A stretch of DNA of 24,000 nucleotides from Promethearchaeia archaeon (GTDB taxonomy: Archaea; Asgardarchaeota; Lokiarchaeia; Sigyniarchaeales; SOKP01). The notes beneath the pieces are model-generated. The model saw only the letters and a list, made by a program, of their open reading frames with translations, did not search any database and was not told the origin of the DNA. Positions within the stretch are counted from its first letter, which is position 1. Each line of letters begins with the position of its first letter. Position numbers and translations under genes: made by a program. This document shows, in pieces, positions 4,671 to 15,940 of this stretch. The stretch is from NCBI GenBank assembly GCA_029856045.1, contig JAHQWG010000028.1:25972-49971 (forward strand), in the 5' to 3' direction.

Positions 4671-5558
4671 ATGCAACAAAAAAGGGTTATACTTAGCGCA
4701 GAGACATCTCATGAAGTTATTAAAATATTCATTGAGCATTTACAAAAACTTGATATTGACTTACAAATTTATAATCCGATTAGTAGCCCCCAAGATTTGG
4801 AAAATAATCAAATTTTCAATTATAAATGCGATTTATTACTAGTTAAAGTTCATAATGATACCTCGATTGACTTTTTACATTATGCAAAACTTCACAATAT
4901 TCCTACATTAAATAATATCGATGCAGTTCTTAATGTTAAAAATAAAGTTTCTTTAGATTATAGCTTGCGTGCTATTTTTAATAAATATAATTTTGAAAAC
5001 ATTCGTTTACCTAAGTCTTGGACATACTACTTTTATAAGATAAAACCCTTTAAAAAATGGATTCAGGAAAAACTTCCTATTGTCATAAAATCTCATTATC
5101 AGCACGAAAAAATGCTACGATTTAATTATTTAATTAGAGATATTAGCGAGATCAAAATGCTTGTTCGAAAGCATATGCTATTTCTTAATTATGATGTCTA
5201 TATACAAGAATTTATAGACTCTGATGGAATTGATAATAAAATTTACGTAATTGGAGATAAAGTATTTGGAATAAAAAGACCGAGCCCAATTTTTATTTAT
5301 AAAAAATACTCAGCTCAATATATTGATACAAAAAAATTAGAACGAGAACAATATGATCCTCCACCAGAATTAATTGAATTAACTCAGATCTTAAGAAAAG
5401 AACTTAAAATGGATTTTTTTGGATTTGATTTACTAAAATCAAATCGAGATGGCAATTATTATATTGTTGATGTAAATGATTTTCCAGGTTATAGAGGTAT
5501 TAAAGGAGCCGGGAAAATAATGGCAGATTATGTAAAAAATTACTTGGAAATTGATTGA
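4671..5558 (+). CDS. ATP-grasp kinase, inositol-1,3,4-trisphosphate 5/6-kinase (ITPK1)-like
   Basis: 'YIQEFIDSDGIDNKIYVIGDKVFGIKRPS' and 'FFGFDLLKSNRDGNYYIVDVNDFPGYRGI' track the ITPK1 motifs 'VVQEFINH..YKVFVVG....QRPS' and 'LFGIDII.....AVIDINAFPGYEGV' (recalled from memory). Confidence 0.6.
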   Translation: MQQKRVILSAETSHEVIKIFIEHLQKLDIDLQIYNPISSPQDLENNQIFNYKCDLLLVKVHNDTSIDFLHYAKLHNIPTLNNIDAVLNVKNKVSLDYSLRAIFNKYNFENIRLPKSWTYYFYKIKPFKKWIQEKLPIVIKSHYQHEKMLRFNYLIRDISEIKMLVRKHMLFLNYDVYIQEFIDSDGIDNKIYVIGDKVFGIKRPSPIFIYKKYSAQYIDTKKLEREQYDPPPELIELTQILRKELKMDFFGFDLLKSNRDGNYYIVDVNDFPGYRGIKGAGKIMADYVKNYLEID

Positions 5559-8723: not shown

Positions 8724-9311
8724 ATGAGTGAAAATTTAAAATGTAATGTATGTGGTGGAGAAATTTCTGAAGATGATCTTGCATTATTAAAAATTCAGAA
8801 AAAAATTGAATGTAGATATTGTAAAAATCTGATAGTTTTAGATGAAAAGACCGCTAAGATTAAAGAAGATTTATGTTGTGTAATATGTGGGGGTGCTTTA
8901 GCGGTTGAAGATCTATCGGAAAAGGCTCTAGCCTGTAAGTATTGTCAAAATGATTTAGAAGAAATATCTTATAGCGAAGCTAATTATCCAGAAATTTTTA
9001 ACAGATTAAAAGCCATACCCGAAGAAAAAATTATTGAGATTTATAAGACTTTAATGAGAGAGGAGAATTTTGAACAGTTAAATAAAGATGACCAAATTAA
9101 ATTAAAAAAATTTGGTGAATCTTTTATACCAAAAATGAAAGAAATTTATAAAGCGAATAAATGGGATATGGCTACAAAAGCTATTGGATGGTTAGGTCAT
9201 AGTTTGGGAACCTTATTAGGATTAACAATACTAGGTGGTACAATTGGAGGAGCAGTGGGAGTATTGTTATCAGTATTAGGAGTTGCATTCGTTAGAGGCA
9301 AGGCAAAATAA
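8724..9311 (+). CDS. Tail-anchored double zinc-ribbon protein
   Basis: Two CxxC...CxxC ribbons: 'CNVCGGEI..(19)..CRYCKNLI' and 'CVICGGAL..(15)..CKYCQNDL'. A helical middle is followed by a Gly-rich hydrophobic C-terminus 'LGTLLGLTILGGTIGGAVGVLLSVLGVAFV'. First gene of the + strand array. Confidence 0.65.
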   Translation: MSENLKCNVCGGEISEDDLALLKIQKKIECRYCKNLIVLDEKTAKIKEDLCCVICGGALAVEDLSEKALACKYCQNDLEEISYSEANYPEIFNRLKAIPEEKIIEIYKTLMREENFEQLNKDDQIKLKKFGESFIPKMKEIYKANKWDMATKAIGWLGHSLGTLLGLTILGGTIGGAVGVLLSVLGVAFVRGKAK

Positions 9312-9350: not shown

Positions 9351-10448
9351 ATGTTAGAATTTAGATTAGTTCCACAATTTCGCAATAATTGTGTGATTCA
9401 GGGTAAAAAAGAGTTAGTTAGCAGTTTTAAAGAAGGAGATACAGTATTTTTATTATCAAAAATTCCAACAAAAACATTTTCTATCTTAACAAAAGTTGAA
9501 GGGATTATAGATTCTGATGAGAATCTTATCTACATCGATCAAAGGATACTTGGTAAATTAGCAGAAAATGATATGGTGACGATTTTAAAACATAATCCAG
9601 CCGAAGCATTAACAATATATTTAGCAATATCGGAATCTTTTTCCAGAGTTTTCAGCGGTGATTGGACATCTTTTGCCAAAAAACCATTAGAAAATAAAGT
9701 TTTTGATTTTGGACAAGAAGTATCATTTATAATTCCCTGGGAAGATGAACATGGAAACCAACTTCCTCCAATTGCTATTTCAGGATTTGTATATTCAACT
9801 GTTCCTACACCACCTATAAAAGTTGGATTACAAACGAAAATATATTTGAAAAAATTTCCTGAACTACAGCTACAAAAAATAAAACAAACTGGTTTTGAAA
9901 AACAAGAAGCACGTGTAAATATATTGGATAATGAAATCCAACAAAACATTTTGCACCTTATGCAAACGATTAAACAAAATAATTATCCAACTAAGGCAAA
10001 TAAATATAAATTTAAAAATGTTAATGCAAAACAATTATTTGCCTCTATAAACGAGGTTTTTAAAGGATTTCGAGTTGTTGAAGGGCCAACTGAAAAGACA
10101 TTTGATAGTGAAAATCAATCATTTTTAGGTTCCATTGTTTATCTTGCTGAAGAAACTACAGATTCTCTGGCAGTTATTGATCTTCAGGTATTAGCAAAAA
10201 ATCAAAATGGAGAAGTAATACTAATGGTCACTGCTAAAGATAATGATGTTGTTTATAATCTGTTAAATAAATATGATTTATTAATTCGCAAAATTAAAAT
10301 TGGGTTAGAAGAAAAAGCAGAGCTAAAGGTTGAGATTTGTCCTAGCTGTGGGGCAGATTTACCTCTTGATGATGTGGACTCAGATGGATCTATTGAATGT
10401 TTATATTGCCACAGAACCTCAATTATTCCAAAATCATATAGATACTAG
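9351..10448 (+). CDS. Cdc48-N/VAT-N/Ufd1-like N-domain protein with C-terminal zinc ribbon
   Basis: 'LIYIDQRILGKLAENDMVTILKHNPAEALTIYLA' followed by 'KPLENKVFDFGQEVSFII....ISGFVYSTVPTPPIKVGLQTKIYLK' fits the double-psi barrel + beta-clam pattern of Cdc48_N/Cdc48_2 (by eye). The C-terminal 'CPSCGADL..(14)..CLYCHRTSII' is the same ribbon type as in the upstream gene. Confidence 0.5.
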   Translation: MLEFRLVPQFRNNCVIQGKKELVSSFKEGDTVFLLSKIPTKTFSILTKVEGIIDSDENLIYIDQRILGKLAENDMVTILKHNPAEALTIYLAISESFSRVFSGDWTSFAKKPLENKVFDFGQEVSFIIPWEDEHGNQLPPIAISGFVYSTVPTPPIKVGLQTKIYLKKFPELQLQKIKQTGFEKQEARVNILDNEIQQNILHLMQTIKQNNYPTKANKYKFKNVNAKQLFASINEVFKGFRVVEGPTEKTFDSENQSFLGSIVYLAEETTDSLAVIDLQVLAKNQNGEVILMVTAKDNDVVYNLLNKYDLLIRKIKIGLEEKAELKVEICPSCGADLPLDDVDSDGSIECLYCHRTSIIPKSYRY

Positions 10449-10479: not shown

Positions 10480-11259
10480 ATGGATTCCGATAGATATACA
10501 CGTTTAAAAGCAATAAAAGAATTTGGTTATGATATAAATTGGGATGATCTTAAAAAATACCATGTTGGCATAGTTGGAGTTGGTGGGTTAGGTGCAGTTT
10601 CAGCCGAAATGGCTACAAGGTGTGGAATTGGCAAGATTTCATTGTTTGATTTTGATATTGTAGAAGAAGTTAATCTCAATAGATTATTTTTTAAACCTCA
10701 ACATGTGGGTTTATTAAAAGTTGAAGCGGCAAAAAAGATTCTGAAAGAAATAAATCCTGATGTGGAGTTTTTTACTTATCCTAAAGACATTATGGATATG
10801 GATTTTGAACCCATATTTGATAAAAAGATTCAAGAAATAGATATTATTCTTAATGGAGTTGATAATCTAGCTGCTCGTGAGTATTTGAATATAAAATGCA
10901 TTAGATTCAAAATACCTTATATAAATGCTGGTGCATCTAGAAGTGGTCTATCAGGTTATGTCCATCCAATAATCCCTTATAAAACAGCTTGTTCTGCATG
11001 CATAAAGCGGATTAATATTGAAAAATCTAATGACCGTGGAGAGCCATGCACCGCATCTCTGCCATCAACTATGGCGATATTAGCTAGTATTCAAATTCAA
11101 GAACTGCTGAAGTATTTATTGAAATTTGGGACGATGATCGATTATGTCATGTACAATATGCTTTCTGGAGAATTTTCATATTATAAGACAATCAGAGATA
11201 ATAAGTGTTCAATTTGTGGAGACTTTAATGTTCTAAAGGAAAATGAAAAACATTTATAG
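10480..11259 (+). CDS. UBA5-like E1 (UFM1-activating-enzyme-like adenylation domain, ThiF/MoeB superfamily)
   Basis: 'VGIVGVGGLGAVSAEMATRCGIGKISLFDFDIVEEVNLNRLFFKPQHVGLLKVEAAKKILKEINPDV' tracks human UBA5 '[67 protein letters not shown]' closely. 'RGEPCTASLPSTMAILASIQIQELLKYLLKFG' tracks '[32 protein letters not shown]', which holds the catalytic Cys (here codon 11047-11049). Zn pairs are 'CSAC' and 'CSIC'. Human sequence recalled from memory. Confidence 0.85.
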   Translation: MDSDRYTRLKAIKEFGYDINWDDLKKYHVGIVGVGGLGAVSAEMATRCGIGKISLFDFDIVEEVNLNRLFFKPQHVGLLKVEAAKKILKEINPDVEFFTYPKDIMDMDFEPIFDKKIQEIDIILNGVDNLAAREYLNIKCIRFKIPYINAGASRSGLSGYVHPIIPYKTACSACIKRINIEKSNDRGEPCTASLPSTMAILASIQIQELLKYLLKFGTMIDYVMYNMLSGEFSYYKTIRDNKCSICGDFNVLKENEKHL

Positions 11260-11310: not shown

Positions 11311-12537
11311 ATGGATTTTGTAAAAATTACAGAGGATATTTTAAATTTTATTAAAAAGCAGGCCATATTAAGCACTGATGAGATATATGGATGGTTAATT
11401 GGATATCAAATGAATAATATTCCATACATAATTACCGCTCTCGATTGTCAAAATTATCTACAGCAGTCATACATCAACGCCATCCCTGATCCCCTAGAGA
11501 TTCAAAAAATTGGTGGCTTAATGCCTCACGGGATTGGCATTATTGGTATATATCATTCTCATCCCTTTAAAAGTGAAGTTTTTCATTCTCATACAGACGA
11601 TGAAACTCTAATAAGCTTAAGTAAACAACTTCCAAATTGTGTGTCAATTGTAACAAATGGAAAAGATATTAATTATTATCAAATGGATAAGTCATTTAAA
11701 TTAGTGGATATTGATCCAAAAATCTGGAAACCTGAAATACCAGAATTCTTACCCATTTTTTTTAATAATTCATTTATTATTAATTTAGAGAAAAATCTAC
11801 TCAATAATGAGAGCCTACATGTAAAAATATTTAATAAATTTAAAGATTATTTAGAAGAGAATTGGGATGATTTTAAATTATTCAAAAATAATATAGAAAT
11901 TTCTTATAATGAAAAAATAAATCAATATTTTAAATCTTCTCTGGATGGAAATTATCTGGAATTGAAGTTTAAAAATAAAAAGAATATTAATGAATTAATT
12001 AAAATTAATGTATTCAATGAAGAAATAGGCGTTAAAGTTGCAGACCAAGCTGATATGGTTTCTTTGCAATTAAATCTTAAATCCTTAGATCTTTTTTATA
12101 TTACCGATAAAAATAGTATTAATGAACTCAGAAATTCAATTAAAATTGAAATAATAAATAATAGTATAATGCCAAAAATCTTTCGATGCTTAATTGATAT
12201 TGATAATTCTGAATTACGAATACCAAATGAGCTTTTTCTTAATTTATATGGATTTTTCATAAAAGTTAATTATTATAATCAAGAGATTATTCAAAAATTA
12301 AATGATACTTATCCAATCAACAATAATTATGAAAATCTTTCGATAAAAAATTGGGAATTTTTAGGTAGGATGTTAAAAATAGTGGATTTATATTTATCTT
12401 TAAAAATTGATAAATCTTCAAAAAGGCTTCTCATCGAATTAGTTGAAAATTTAATTAAATTATCCAAAAATCACAAATGGTATGATAAGATAAAAAAAGT
12501 TTTAGATAAACAAAAAGAATCTTTATTACGATCATAA
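11311..12537 (+). CDS. JAB1/MPN+/JAMM metalloprotease with ~270-aa N/K/I-rich C-terminal extension
   Basis: Catalytic Glu context 'DEIYGWLIGY'. JAMM motif 'GIYHSHPFKSEVFHSHTDDE' (HxH...SxxD, nt 11554-11598). The core covers roughly the first 135 residues and the rest has no motif I recognise. Confidence 0.8.
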   Translation: MDFVKITEDILNFIKKQAILSTDEIYGWLIGYQMNNIPYIITALDCQNYLQQSYINAIPDPLEIQKIGGLMPHGIGIIGIYHSHPFKSEVFHSHTDDETLISLSKQLPNCVSIVTNGKDINYYQMDKSFKLVDIDPKIWKPEIPEFLPIFFNNSFIINLEKNLLNNESLHVKIFNKFKDYLEENWDDFKLFKNNIEISYNEKINQYFKSSLDGNYLELKFKNKKNINELIKINVFNEEIGVKVADQADMVSLQLNLKSLDLFYITDKNSINELRNSIKIEIINNSIMPKIFRCLIDIDNSELRIPNELFLNLYGFFIKVNYYNQEIIQKLNDTYPINNNYENLSIKNWEFLGRMLKIVDLYLSLKIDKSSKRLLIELVENLIKLSKNHKWYDKIKKVLDKQKESLLRS

Positions 12538-12611
12538 TGAATAATTAAATAGATTAAAAAAATTGATTATTATATAATATAAAAATTTAAAAAAATTGAG
12601 GGTAGTAGTTA

Positions 12612-12878
12612 ATGGCAAATATTGGCATCACTACAGTTTATTTTGTTAATAAGTTTGCTCCAGAAAAAAAACATATTCCATTTCCAGTTTCTCCTTCAAT
12701 GACAATGGCAGATCTTTTACCAGAGTTATCTAAAAAGTTTAATATACATTTACAAAATATTTCAATTGCGGTGCAGGATTCACAAGTTTTAACGATAGAA
12801 GAATATTCTTTATCACTAAAGAATTTAATTGATAAATTTGGTAAAACATTTGATATTATTGATAGAAATATAGTAGGC
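12612..12878 (+). other. UFM1-like beta-grasp domain ending at Gly89 (candidate processing site after 12878)
   Basis: Domain-level call within the fusion ORF. The 'DRNIVG' Gly codon ggc lies at 12876-12878 and is followed by the ~10-aa linker 'TEKSDAQYSES'. Confidence 0.6.
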
Positions 12879-13430
12879 ACTGAGAAATCTGATGCACAAT
12901 ATTCAGAAAGTCTGGTGGATGAATTAATTCCTGAGTTTGGAGCCGAATGGGCTAAGATAGGTCCCAAACATCCACGTTGGCAAGAAAGAATAAAAAAAGA
13001 AATAGAAAATATCTTAAGATACGTACATTATCTAAAAAAACTTTCAAATGAGCCATGGTTTAGATTGGTTCCTTCGAAAAATCCTAGACATAATTACCTC
13101 ATTTGGAATGGACATATCCTTGTTCCAAAACGACCAGAAATAAAATTTGATATCGCAATATTATTAACTTCAGAGTATCCTAAAAATTGCCCACGTTGTT
13201 TTGCAGATGACAAAATAATGGATTATTGTGGAAAACTATATTTTGGTAATGTATGGGAGCAAGAAGGGCATAAATACGTGATGATATGCCATGACCATAT
13301 GAGTGAAACCACCGCCTGGAAAGAATCACTGGGGATTGTTCATTTCTTCATAAGAGAGATTTGGATTTGGTGGATGGCTCAACAAAATTTCATCATTCAA
13401 AATTGGGATGAAAAGCATGGTAAAAAGTAA
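12612..13430 (+). CDS. Fusion protein: UFM1-like ubiquitin-fold domain + UFC1-like E2
   Basis: Residues 1-89 end 'FDIIDRNIVG' (human UFM1 mature C-terminus is 'RIIPRDRVG'), and 'IPFPVSPSMTMADLLPELSKKFNI' tracks '[24 protein letters not shown]'. Residues ~100-272: 'LVDELIPEFGAEWAKIGPKHPRWQERIKKEIENILRYVHYLKKLSNEPWFRLVPSKN' tracks UFC1 '[53 protein letters not shown]'. 'KFDIAILLTSEYP' tracks 'EFDIEFDIPITYP', and 'VMICHDHM' tracks 'GKICLTDHF' (catalytic Cys, codon 13287-13289). No HPN motif, as in UFC1. GAGG lies upstream of the ATG. Confidence 0.75.
   Translation: MANIGITTVYFVNKFAPEKKHIPFPVSPSMTMADLLPELSKKFNIHLQNISIAVQDSQVLTIEEYSLSLKNLIDKFGKTFDIIDRNIVGTEKSDAQYSESLVDELIPEFGAEWAKIGPKHPRWQERIKKEIENILRYVHYLKKLSNEPWFRLVPSKNPRHNYLIWNGHILVPKRPEIKFDIAILLTSEYPKNCPRCFADDKIMDYCGKLYFGNVWEQEGHKYVMICHDHMSETTAWKESLGIVHFFIREIWIWWMAQQNFIIQNWDEKHGKK
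12909..13427 (+). other. UFC1-like E2 core domain
   Basis: Domain-level call within the fusion ORF. See the motif comparison under the CDS entry. Confidence 0.65.
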
Positions 13431-13601: not shown

Positions 13602-14654
13602 ATGAAAATTATTCAATATTATATAAAATTGGATAATATGGAGATTAATAATGAATTAGAAAAACTTAGAAGGAATCTATTGAAGTTAAAAGATACTTTA
13701 AACGCATATAGAATCCCTCCATCATTAACAAAGATTGATAAAATAAAGAAGAACGTTATTAATAAAATAAAAATGGTAATTTTCTATTTAGAATTGATAC
13801 TGATTGAAACGGAAAAAACTATTTATGATTTTGAAGAAAGTACCCTTGATTTCAAGGATAATGATAATATTGAAGAGGTTCTCAATATTTTCTCAGAATG
13901 TGATAAAAAGATAAATAATTTATTATTACAATTGGATAATTTTGGAGATCTAACTCAATTTAAAAATATTTTCGATTTGATTGAACCTGAAATTGAAAAA
14001 CTATATCCTAAATCTAAAGATATCGAGAAAATTTTGAAGCTAAGTAAAAAAGCCAATTTATTAAAAATCGAGAGAGAGAAATTACCAACAATTCTGAAAA
14101 TTGAAAGGGAAGAAAAGAAAGAAGTAAAAGAAAAAAAAATTATTCAACCTTTAGAAACTGCAGAAGAAAATAATGAAGTTCTACGTAATATTTTCGAAAG
14201 ATTCTCCTTAAAGGTTCCAAATAAGAGTCAATTAATTGATAGTATCGTATCGATTGGGGATTCTAAAATAACAAACGAATTAGGGGGAGTCGTAAAAATA
14301 ACAGCATTATATAACTTTATAAAAGATGAGAATAAGGATTTAGATTTTACATTAGACGATTTAAACAAAGTTTTAAAATATATGAGAAAGAAAGGATATA
14401 TTTCAGATATTGAAGAGATTGAAAATCTAAAGTTAGTAAAATTTATTCCACTTGAACTATCATCAGATCCAAAATTATTATTAGAATCCGTAGGATTCGA
14501 AGGCGTGGAGACTAAAGAAAATTTAATGAAAAAACTTAATTGGCCAGAATCAAGAGTGGATGAGGTTTTAAGGTTTTTAATTGACAAGGGAATATGCAAA
14601 TCAGAAAATAATTCTTTAATAAGTGAAAGATTTTACTTTCCAGGATTAGTATAG
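13602..14654 (+). CDS. EAP30-domain protein (ESCRT-II Vps22/Vps36-like) with N-terminal coiled-coil region
   Basis: The C-terminal ~150 aa 'LGGVVKITALYNFIK...FTLDDLNKVLKYMRKKGY...LVKFIPLELSSDPKLLLESVG...ENLMKKLNWPESRVDEVLRFLIDKGICK....ERFYFPGLV' aligns by eye with human SNF8/EAP30 'NGGLITLEELHQQVL...VSQDDLIRAIKKLKALG...LIQSVPAELNMDHTVVLQLAE...EIKASLKWETERARQVLEHLLKEGLAW...HYWLPALF' (tandem winged helices). The N-terminal ~200 aa is K/E/I-rich and helical. Confidence 0.7.
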   Translation: MKIIQYYIKLDNMEINNELEKLRRNLLKLKDTLNAYRIPPSLTKIDKIKKNVINKIKMVIFYLELILIETEKTIYDFEESTLDFKDNDNIEEVLNIFSECDKKINNLLLQLDNFGDLTQFKNIFDLIEPEIEKLYPKSKDIEKILKLSKKANLLKIEREKLPTILKIEREEKKEVKEKKIIQPLETAEENNEVLRNIFERFSLKVPNKSQLIDSIVSIGDSKITNELGGVVKITALYNFIKDENKDLDFTLDDLNKVLKYMRKKGYISDIEEIENLKLVKFIPLELSSDPKLLLESVGFEGVETKENLMKKLNWPESRVDEVLRFLIDKGICKSENNSLISERFYFPGLV

Positions 14655-14734: not shown

Positions 14735-15940
14735 ATGGTAGGAGAGATTCCTAGAGGAATTAGTCGAAGTTTAAAAGATAAAGTCTTAGGTAAGAAGTTA
14801 AAAATTGTAGAGATGATGCATGAGACTTCAGCAGATCTAAGTGAAAAAAGAGTGGTTTATCGTTTAGCTCTAACTGGAAAAAAAGAGGCAGGAAAAAGGG
14901 AAGAAAAGGTTTCTGCTTTTATAGTTAAAGCATATGAAAGTGCGATTTTGCTTCAATTAGGAAAGTTTATTGGAATTATTCCAGAAGGCGTTTGGGAAAT
15001 TGAAAAAGAATTTCAATACACAGGGACTGAAATTATCTGGGTTGATAAAACAGAGTTTAAAACTAGATGGGGTTTAGCAGATATTTACTTAAATGATAAT
15101 ATTAAAGTAGGGGCTCATGGTTCACTTGTAGTAAAAATTTCAGAACCGAAAAATTTTGTGTTAAATGTTGTCTCAAATAAGCAGATTGTTGACAGAGGAC
15201 AAGTCGATAAATTCATTTTTGAGCACGTAGGTCAAAGTTATAAAGATATACTTGGTGGTTTTTCGATCAATGATGTTATTAGAAGTCGAGATATGATTAA
15301 ACAAAAAGTAAATGCAAAATTATATGATCTTCTAACTCATTGGGGTATTGAATTAATAAATATGGAAATAGAAGGCTTCAAGCTTCCTGAAGAATTTGAG
15401 GAAATTGGTCAAGTATCCATGGAAACCTCACTTGAAAAACAGAAAGCAATCTCAGATAGGGAACGCATAAAAGAGGAAATTGAAACTGTAAAGATACAAT
15501 CAGAATTAGAAGCCCAAAAAAGAGAAATAGAGGCAAATAGAAAAGGTTTTGAACGTGAACAAGCCGTTATAGACTCTCAAATTGGTTATGAAAAAGCTAA
15601 ATATGATGCTAAAGCAAAAGAAATTGAAGGAACTGTGAGTGTTGAATTACTGGAAAAACAGCAAAAAGCTAAAGCAGCAGGAGATGTAGCAAAAATTGAA
15701 GTTACTGGTGATAAAATGGCCAAAATTGTTGAAGCTCAAGCCGGAGTAGATAAGAGTCAAGAGGACTTAAAACGAGAACGACAACAAAAGATTAAGCAAG
15801 AAATTTCCGAATTAAAAGAGAAATTAAATAAATTTGATGATTTATTGGCTGAAGGAAAACTTTCTGAAGATATATATAAAGTGCGAGTTTCTCGAATTGA
15901 GAAAGAGTTGAAAGATCTTGAAACAAAACTTCTAGATTAA
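14735..15940 (+). CDS. SPFH/band-7 (Band_7_1, B. subtilis YdjI-like) protein with long C-terminal coiled coil
   Basis: 'IIWVDKTEFKTRWGLADIYLND.NIKVGAHGSLVVKISEPKNFVLNVVS' tracks YdjI 'VLFVNTKEFTVRWGTKQAINI...IRANGTFTFKVQDYVSLIDKIAG' (from memory). 'GIELINMEIEGFKLPEE' tracks 'GLTVTGFQIMSFNYPQE'. The last ~170 aa is E/K/Q-rich coiled coil. GGGTG lies 6 nt before the ATG. Confidence 0.7.
   Translation: MVGEIPRGISRSLKDKVLGKKLKIVEMMHETSADLSEKRVVYRLALTGKKEAGKREEKVSAFIVKAYESAILLQLGKFIGIIPEGVWEIEKEFQYTGTEIIWVDKTEFKTRWGLADIYLNDNIKVGAHGSLVVKISEPKNFVLNVVSNKQIVDRGQVDKFIFEHVGQSYKDILGGFSINDVIRSRDMIKQKVNAKLYDLLTHWGIELINMEIEGFKLPEEFEEIGQVSMETSLEKQKAISDRERIKEEIETVKIQSELEAQKREIEANRKGFEREQAVIDSQIGYEKAKYDAKAKEIEGTVSVELLEKQQKAKAAGDVAKIEVTGDKMAKIVEAQAGVDKSQEDLKRERQQKIKQEISELKEKLNKFDDLLAEGKLSEDIYKVRVSRIEKELKDLETKLLD

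Follow-up and report, generated by a model that had tools for sequence, protein, structure and literature searches.

Modification of proteins by the ubiquitin-like protein (Ubl) UFM1 is a eukaryotic pathway in which UBA5 is the activating enzyme (E1), UFC1 the conjugating enzyme (E2) and UFSP1/2 the cysteine protease. The C-terminal glycine of UFM1 is exposed by loss of two residues, its 85-residue precursor ending in RVGSC and its mature chains at Gly83. Picchianti et al. (2023) considered UFM1 and UFC1 to be exclusive to eukaryotes, with UBA5-like proteins present in prokaryotes, and traced UFL1 and DDRGK1 to Asgard archaea (PMC10183829). Homologues of Ufm1 were subsequently found by structure in nine Asgard clades, according to the available passages of Kostlbacher et al. 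(bioRxiv 2024; Nat Microbiol 2026, PMC12962969), some of the hits being not full-length or containing several hit regions. These passages mention no conjugating enzyme, operon, JAMM protease or Ubl–E2 fusion, and neither UFC1 nor UBA5 occurs in the main text of the report. Asgard Ufm1 homologues have been on record only since 2024/2026, and without partners. Here we describe a locus in which such partners are encoded side by side, in a stretch of 24,000 nucleotides (hereafter the window) from a Promethearchaeia archaeon of the GTDB lineage Asgardarchaeota, Lokiarchaeia, Sigyniarchaeales, SOKP01 (assembly GCA_029856045.1, contig JAHQWG010000028.1, positions 25,972–49,971). At its center a single gene (positions 12612–13430, forward strand) encodes a UFM1-like domain joined in frame to a UFC1-like E2, next to genes for a UBA5-like E1, a JAMM metalloprotease and a Cdc48/p97 N-domain-like partner protein. 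The reading that we favor, and hold to be reasonably probable, is that the fusion serves as a precursor from which cleavage after Gly89, in all likelihood by the JAMM of the operon, liberates equal amounts (1:1) of modifier and E2.

Precursor fusions of Ubls and UFM1-type cascades are each known, while a modifier–E2 fusion and an archaeal UBA5/UFC1/UFM1/JAMM operon are new. In the full-text literature on UFC1 or UBA5 in archaea or Asgard and on ufmylation in connection with archaeal operons, a coverage that leaves out most subscription-journal papers, the arrangement is undescribed. Close analogs are the Ubl-MoaE (MoaD-MoaE) fusions processed by HvJAMM1 and DRJAMM, in which an N-terminal β-grasp Ubl is joined through its terminal glycine to a functional partner, and in which this glycine is inaccessible to E1 until a JAMM protease cuts right after it (PMC4443979; PMC8832034). 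Specifically, HvJAMM1 cuts the linear SAMP1-MoaE fusion in vitro exactly after the terminal glycine, cleavage in vivo is jamm1-dependent, and the uncut fusion is inactive (PMC4443979). The window shares with these systems an N-terminal Ubl, a partner beginning directly after the glycine, and a neighboring gene for a JAMM whose metal site is intact, but the MoaE partner is a subunit of a sulfur-transfer enzyme rather than an E2, and the pathway is one of cofactor biosynthesis and sampylation. A second archaeal operon for a eukaryote-type Ubl cascade is that of Caldiarchaeum subterraneum (pro-ubiquitin, E1, E2, RING and Rpn11), whose JAMM/Rpn11 both matures the precursor, cutting pro-CsUb precisely after its terminal Gly-Gly, and deconjugates (PMC6043591); it differs in having a ubiquitin-type Gly-Gly with a 9-residue tail, a separate E2 gene and a RING E3. 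In eukaryotes, UBA52, RPS27A and polyubiquitin are likewise N-terminal modifier fusions cut after the terminal glycine, with stoichiometric co-production of the partner (PMC11354881), although the partner there is a ribosomal protein or ubiquitin itself instead of an enzyme belonging to the cascade, and the cut is made by cysteine deubiquitinases (DUBs). Finally, bacterial cascades such as Cap2 of the anti-phage signaling system based on cyclic oligonucleotides (CBASS) and those covered by the 'E1-E2' models of PADLOC also combine domain fusions with a JAB protease, but fuse the E2 to the E1, where in the window it is the Ubl that is fused to the E2.

The fused gene was recovered exactly as drawn in the initial annotation, a single open reading frame (ORF) of 272 codons plus stop beginning with ATG, in which residues 1–89 (12612–12878) form the Ubl and residues 101–272 (12912–13427) the E2. 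A Shine-Dalgarno (SD)-like GAGGGT at 12598–12603, 8 nucleotides 5′ of the ATG, is the sole ribosome-binding signal serving both domains. The Ubl closes with IIDRNIVG (residues 82–89), an R-x-x-V-G tail with a single terminal glycine that mirrors human IIPRDRVG83, as had been claimed from the sequence; its last residue, Gly89 (codon ggc, 12876–12878), is the predicted C-terminus of the mature modifier as well as the predicted cleavage site. Across the junction G89|T90 follows the segment TEKSDAQYSES (residues 90–100, 12879–12911), originally described as a linker of about ten residues. Its letters were read correctly, but there is no extra spacer: since stand-alone E2 orthologs begin 7–8 residues ahead of a conserved W/Y97, the segment corresponds to the variable N-terminal end of the E2, abutting Gly89. 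The annotation was also accurate in noting that this region contains no ATG, none being found in codons 81–130, and that the sole GTG in this range, Val102, has no SD-like sequence on its 5′ side. Separate translation of the E2 from an internal start is thereby ruled out, in contrast to split orthologs of the pair, where the E2 genes have strong SDs or start codons overlapping the upstream stop.

The fusion is not an artifact. A frameshift or assembly error at the junction, which the initial annotation had named as its own possible undoing, is excluded by the recovery of the identical protein on at least four contigs, three of which derive from SRR3095939, SRR3095933 and ERZ27232714 (a 384-kb contig is also recorded), and by retention of the fusion in 18 orthologous clusters of 266–293 residues with 44–85% identity. 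Among GTDB species representatives the fused gene occurs in seven, and the metagenome-assembled genomes carrying it are labeled Promethearchaeota, Hermodarchaeota and Heimdallarchaeota. The whole family, drawn from a library of 1.84 billion representative proteins, comprises 79 clusters at E-values up to 0.001, and all taxon-named homologs are Asgard (Promethearchaeota/Lokiarchaeia, Hermod-, Odin-, Hod-, Heimdall- and Sigynarchaeota), the sole exception being a truncated match whose contig had been assigned to a Patescibacteria bin (locus L040). Within the fused proteins conservation drops abruptly at the junction. Gly89 is invariant in 18 of 18 fused orthologs and Val88 nearly so, whereas the residues right after Gly89 are the least conserved of the entire protein, pairwise identity falling to 0.08–0.23 at positions 90–96 from approximately 0.6 in both domain cores.

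Assignment of the C-terminal half is supported by several lines of comparison. The Pfam UFC1 model (PF08694) matches residues 114–195 of the fused protein with 27.2 bits against a cut-off of 25, and precomputed matches to the same model are present on many orthologs, so that this automatic label already exists in public databases. A profile built from 30 family members and run against all PDB sequences returned only UFC1 chains below an E-value of 1e-3, and hhalign aligned residues 104–264 with human UFC1 (a query 100% identical to PDB 7ovc_A) at a probability of 93.6% and an E-value of 2e-7. In this alignment Cys226 (codon tgc, 13287–13289), within the invariant motif ICHDH (IC-HDH as aligned), falls on the UFC1 catalytic Cys116 in ICLTDH, and I225, C226, H227 and H229 are all invariant across the 30 sequences. 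Structural comparison concurs: a Foldseek search of the PDB with the AlphaFold2 model of the fused protein yielded UFC1 for all of the top 19 matches (E-values of 2e-6 to 2e-4, target template-modeling (TM) scores of about 0.7), the first non-UFC1 E2 appearing at rank 32, and the model places short helices at 101–105 and 111–114 ahead of a long helix at 123–143, as expected for a UFC1-type E2. The domain is not a copy of its eukaryotic counterpart. In UFC1 a TAK motif replaces the HPN motif of canonical E2s; HPN is also absent from the E2 half of the fused protein, and the position of UFC1 T106-A107-K108 is occupied by C206-G207-K208, in which the lysine alone is kept (K208 in at least 90% of sequences). 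Mutants of UFC1 at T106 and K108 have been studied, to judge by PDB titles among the fold matches. A further difference is an insertion of about nine residues before the cysteine relative to UFC1. Taken as a whole, profile and fold matches indicate that the C-terminal half is UFC1-like over its entire length.

The N-terminal half adopts a β-grasp fold, as anticipated, in an AlphaFold2 model of the whole protein with a predicted local distance difference test (pLDDT) value of 88.3 and a predicted TM score (pTM) of 0.86. The closest solved structures to this domain are UFM1 chains (5hkh, 6h77_Q, 5l95_C), superposing with target TM scores of 0.81–0.86 and root-mean-square deviations (rmsd) of 1.4–1.9 Å over 78–82 columns, while ubiquitin chains rank below UFM1 with TM scores of 0.75–0.78 and rmsd of 2.5–2.9 Å. 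A profile of 13 Ubl sequences was aligned by hhalign with human UFM1 (a query 100% identical to PDB 8ohd_D) at an E-value of 3.6e-4 and a probability of 37%, the alignment reaching the very end of both and placing Gly89 on Gly83. Confidence in the model is about 90 in the core of this domain and dips to pLDDT 74–79 in the segment after Gly89. The Asgard Ufm1 homologs of Kostlbacher et al. probably belong to the same Ubl family.

Comparison with orthologs in which the two domains are separate genes is the most informative with regard to the fate of the junction. In 19 GTDB species and several metagenomic loci, a Ubl gene of 88–94 codons is directly followed by an E2 gene of about 180, so that both arrangements, split and fused, exist. 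In 16 of these 19 species the Ubl gene stops exactly at the equivalent of Gly89 (IIDRGIVG-stop), which is thus the last residue, and the other three carry the short post-glycine tails GN, WYE and ART, the first of these in the cultured Lokiarchaeum ossiferum (CP104013), which has the split form. Outside the GTDB set, tails of LL in a Heimdall locus and QNKCGARYD in a Hodarchaeales locus were found. Such short archaeal tails resemble the SC tail of eukaryotic pro-UFM1. The initial annotation had proposed that the E2 is the C-terminal propeptide of the Ubl, and this proposal gains support from the split genes, which end at the glycine or 2–9 residues beyond it, as a propeptide would predict. At the DNA level, alignment of the junctions shows fused and split forms to differ by a single nucleotide in length and loss of the stop codon, and in ten of the 19 split species a candidate E2 start overlaps the TGA stop of the Ubl gene as ATGA, GTGA or TTGA. 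Both arrangements would therefore ensure coupled production of the same two products. Neighbor-joining trees built on the E2 domain intersperse fused proteins among split ones; evolution thus seems to have treated the two as equivalent, and the trees point to several switches between these states.

An observation of separate interest concerns four of the split loci (L028:2232-2234, L035 near 6267, and L038 and L039 near 6264), where the E2 frame contains no ATG, GTG or TTG before its conserved N-terminal tryptophan, and a strong GGAGG or GGGGGT SD is found 6–8 nucleotides ahead of an ATT or ATA codon. This suggests that non-canonical start codons may be used in these Asgard genomes.

The genomic surroundings of the fused gene complete the picture of a cascade. 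Approximately 40 related loci share a conserved block encoding the 365-residue partner, E1, JAMM, Ubl and E2, which is almost always present. In the window the E1 (10480–11259, forward strand) is a protein of 259 residues consisting of the adenylation domain only. It matches the Pfam ThiF family (5.5e-50) and resembles human UBA5 (PDB 6h78; E-value 2.1e-54, 188 bits) far more than MoeB (6e-25, 91 bits) or ThiF, and Cys190 falls on the residue that is the catalytic cysteine in UBA5 (gepCtaSLPsTM against gvCaaSLPtTM). None of the C-terminal UFM1-interacting or UFC1-binding sequences of UBA5 was found in it, the alignment to the UBA5 construct stopping at residue 257 of 259. The JAMM/MPN+ metalloprotease (11311–12537, forward strand; 408 residues), immediately upstream of the fusion, is the candidate processing and deconjugating enzyme. 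It passes the Pfam Prok-JAB threshold (27.5 bits against a cut-off of 25) and has an intact JAMM motif (E24, H82-x-H84, S93 and D96, aligned to CsRpn11), followed by an uncharacterized C-terminal region of about 270 residues. A JAMM gene, to which the initial annotation refers, lies beside the fusion in the window and is a neighbor in nearly every related locus; among loci of sufficient length the JAMM adjoins the module practically without exception, and it does so in every fused one. The remaining member (9351–10448, forward strand) is a 365-residue protein predicted to have a Cdc48/p97 N-domain-like fold in its N-terminal half (AlphaFold2 pLDDT 72, Foldseek E-value 5e-6), then an α/β domain and a C-terminal zinc ribbon, which adjoins the E1 in nearly all related loci and gave no sequence match in Pfam, NCBIfam or the PDB. 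It may act as a reader of the Ubl, as an adaptor or as an E3-like factor. At cut-off, NCBIfam had no family for the fusion, the E1, the JAMM, the 365-residue partner or the winged-helix protein encoded downstream, and for the E1 all prokaryotic models stayed below their cut-offs.

When set against the eukaryotic UFM1 pathway, this module shows both likeness and deviation. Its E1 best matches UBA5, its E2 matches UFC1 with the catalytic cysteine aligned, its modifier is akin to UFM1 in fold and R-x-x-V-G tail, and some archaeal orthologs even possess a two-residue tail after the glycine, as UFM1 does. On the other hand, modifier and E2 form one polypeptide, the protease is a JAMM metalloprotease and not a UFSP1/2-type cysteine protease, the E1 is devoid of C-terminal tails for binding UFM1 and UFC1, an insertion precedes the cysteine of the E2 and CGK stands in place of TAK, and the genes are organized as a prokaryotic operon that includes a Cdc48-N-like partner. 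UFL1, DDRGK1 and CDK5RAP3 were not detected by sequence. The system would function like the core cascade of UFM1, with which it probably shares ancestry, but it does not fit neatly into the eukaryotic pathway as that is defined.

A mechanism consistent with these findings begins with translation from one start of the polypeptide Ubl(1–89)-E2(90–272). E1 enzymes adenylate a free C-terminal carboxylate, and a Ubl whose glycine is held in peptide linkage therefore cannot be activated. A protease, most likely the JAMM encoded immediately upstream, would cut the bond after Gly89, yielding a UFM1-like modifier with a free C-terminal glycine and a UFC1-like E2 that begins in the same way as its stand-alone orthologs. 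The UBA5-like E1 would then adenylate Gly89, form a thioester on Cys190 and pass the modifier to Cys226 of the E2, and from there to targets. The UBA5-type E1 and the E2, which would accept the modifier from it as a thioester, are associated in the genome. The same JAMM may reverse conjugation as a deconjugase. Fusion would guarantee strict 1:1 co-production, and may in addition hold both halves latent until the cut. This interpretation as a cleavable precursor follows from the combination of four observations, namely the free exchange between fused and split forms, the strict retention of Gly89 and the catalytic cysteine, the lack of an internal start, and a JAMM that is always next door.

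Several observations nevertheless weigh against it. The Pfam Ufm1 model (PF03671) gave no match at E-values up to 10 among the 13 Ubl sequences, and a HMMER profile of the Ubl found no UFM1 in the PDB. Because neither search gave anything specific, the UFM1 assignment of the N-terminal domain rests on fold, hhalign alignment and context, and the Ubl, which agrees with UFM1 in structure, C-terminus and context but escapes the Pfam sequence model, qualifies as UFM1-like in part. The best PDB sequence match of the JAMM is the Rpn11-like protein of Caldiarchaeum (6fjv), which speaks for a precursor reading in that this enzyme processes pro-CsUb after its terminal glycine, but the match is weak (E-value 0.043). 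Moreover, species in which the Ubl gene already stops at the glycine conserve the JAMM just as well, and for this reason its presence alone does not indicate a role in processing. A pTM of 0.86 points to the two domains being packed in a definite way in the model, which could thus represent a stable two-domain protein. Lastly, some fused relatives have lost the relevant residues, the glycine in P0054, both glycine and cysteine in P0062, and again both in a group of larger proteins of 400–540 residues (P0084/P0089), and comparison of these sequences indicates that an uncleaved Ubl–E2-like architecture can persist.

These last points feed directly into the strongest competing explanation, namely that the fusion is permanent and the Ubl, never released, is a docking or regulatory module of the E2 that recruits it, for instance, to the E1 or to the Cdc48-N-like partner, in which case the true modifier comes from elsewhere or the protein is non-conjugating. 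Apart from the confident two-domain model, it draws on the 259-residue E1, which ends with its adenylation domain and would require another route of E2 recruitment, and on the paralogs lacking glycine and/or cysteine (P0054, P0062 and the P0084 group), which must work uncleaved. Cdc48/p97 N-domain folds bind ubiquitin-like folds, and the fold of the partner is of this kind. Yet a structural linker would not explain why Cys-containing fused orthologs keep Gly89 and the R-x-x-V-G tail with little or no variation while conservation falls off a cliff right after, nor do split orthologs, which stop at the equivalent glycine, conform to it. A second Ubl gene, needed as the alternative source of the modifier, is found neither in the window nor within 6 kb of fused loci. 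Even the divergent relatives are of limited help to this explanation, since the fused proteins without the cysteine (P0062 and the P0084 group) are also without the canonical VG tail; apart from P0054, tail and active site seem to be lost together. The possibility of an Ubl that stays attached, offered as an alternative in the initial annotation, is accordingly weakened by the comparative data and retains some likelihood; we regard it as unlikely, though deserving of attention.

The family includes several architectures in addition to the fused and split pairs. Members P0084, P0089, P0093, P0095, P0107 and P0109 (397–539 residues) combine an N-terminal Ubl-like domain with a Cys-less E2 domain resembling ubiquitin E2 variants (UEV) and a helical C-terminal region. 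In the metagenomic protein P0072 (285 residues), an N-terminal region that looks TIR-like by eye is joined to the front of this UFM1-like Ubl. Here the Ubl closes with IVG|GSKI, so the fusion is of another kind and leaves the C-terminus of the Ubl nearly free. The order is reversed in L034:3-2693 and P0055 (866–897 residues), where a large N-terminal region, repeat-rich by eye, precedes an E2-like domain and a C-terminal Ubl. In these proteins serine replaces the catalytic cysteine and the Ubl has no VG tail, and they are probably non-catalytic derivatives.

A second competing explanation accepts the cut after Gly89 but assigns it to another protease, either a host peptidase or a different JAMM, with the JAMM of the operon only stripping the modifier from its targets. 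Retention of the JAMM in species whose Ubl needs no processing would be accounted for, as would the presence of two JAMM genes in a Heimdall locus (L006), and some archaeal JAMMs are highly substrate-specific (PMC6043591). However, archaea have to date yielded no Ubl-processing proteases other than JAMMs (PMC6043591), a scan of 17 window proteins revealed neither a UFSP-type (C78) domain nor any other DUB domain, and the JAMM gene is adjacent to the fusion and apparently co-transcribed with it, making this explanation improbable, and more so than a permanent fusion. As for a pseudogene or artifact, in which a frameshift or mis-assembly has joined two genes or the E2 is made from an internal start, a sequencing error could account for the one-nucleotide difference between fused and split forms, but the identical ORF on at least four contigs from three samples, the 18 fused clusters extending down to 44% identity together with seven fused GTDB species, the lack of an internal ATG or SD, and the similar pairwise identity of about 0.6 in both domains effectively exclude it.

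Physical joining of a modifier to a UFC1-type E2, beside a UBA5-type E1, is the strongest kind of genomic evidence for a working cognate cascade in archaea, and the locus may exemplify something rare, a modifier whose propeptide is the very enzyme that conjugates it. A broader and more tentative proposal, to which we give slightly less than an even chance, is that the Asgard operon represents the complete ancestor of the eukaryotic UFMylation core, with a JAMM in place of UFSP and a Cdc48-N-like factor in place of the UFL1 complex, that several lineages employ a cleavage-activated precursor, and that UFM1 and UFC1, in this view no eukaryotic inventions, entered eukaryotes jointly from an archaeal pair that repeatedly fused and split. 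With the five-gene module, the question of where UFMylation arose can be put to a direct test, a split-form relative being at hand in the cultured L. ossiferum, and the fusion provides a natural experiment on the coupling of Ubl precursors, E2 stoichiometry and JAMM processing.

Downstream of the fused gene, and on the same strand, lie two genes that are frequent accessories of the module across the roughly 40 related loci. The first (13602–14654) encodes an EAP30/Vps22-like protein with a coiled coil and tandem winged helices, matching Pfam EAP30 just under the cut-off (8.3e-6) and SNF8 in the PDB (3.8e-4). It was considered as a UFL1 or DDRGK1 equivalent, a notion that found no sequence support, its best matches being EAP30 and SNF8/Vps22. 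The second (14735–15940) encodes an SPFH/Band 7 protein (Pfam Band_7, 4.7e-16); roughly half of the related loci have such a gene no more than 6 kb from the module. Since the pair recurs near the module in Loki-type as well as Heimdall loci, the Ubl system may have some connection with membrane factors or factors resembling ESCRT-II (endosomal sorting complex required for transport II). In the Heimdallarchaeota locus L006 (WJIK01000029.1) the module is locally duplicated or elaborated, with two UFC1-like E2 and two JAMM genes alongside one Ubl, one E1 and one 367-residue partner, and its neighbors include two EAP30-like genes and an SPFH gene.

A known anti-phage defense system was also considered for the window and rejected, since PADLOC produced only generic matches at the level of ThiF and JAB, and the context is one of housekeeping. 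With a G+C content of 29%, the window surrounds the module with ordinary chromosomal genes, encoding radical SAM, FKBP, PHP, ITPK-like ATP-grasp, URO-D and ferredoxin-type proteins. In one split Promethearchaeota locus (L001:6739-12546) the module lies beside genes for HEPN/nucleotidyltransferase proteins, a Cas3-like DEAD helicase and BrxC/BrxD-like ATPases, surroundings that look like a defense island and have no parallel in the window. Directly upstream of the module in the window, a gene at 8724–9311 (forward strand) encodes a 195-residue protein with two zinc-ribbon-like CxxC...CxxC motifs and a glycine-rich C-terminal transmembrane segment, a homolog of which occurs in only one other locus (L018). 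Further upstream, the ATP-grasp protein encoded at 4671–5558 (forward strand) matches Pfam Ins134_P3_kin (2.2e-16), the inositol 1,3,4-trisphosphate 5/6-kinase family that is typical of eukaryotes.

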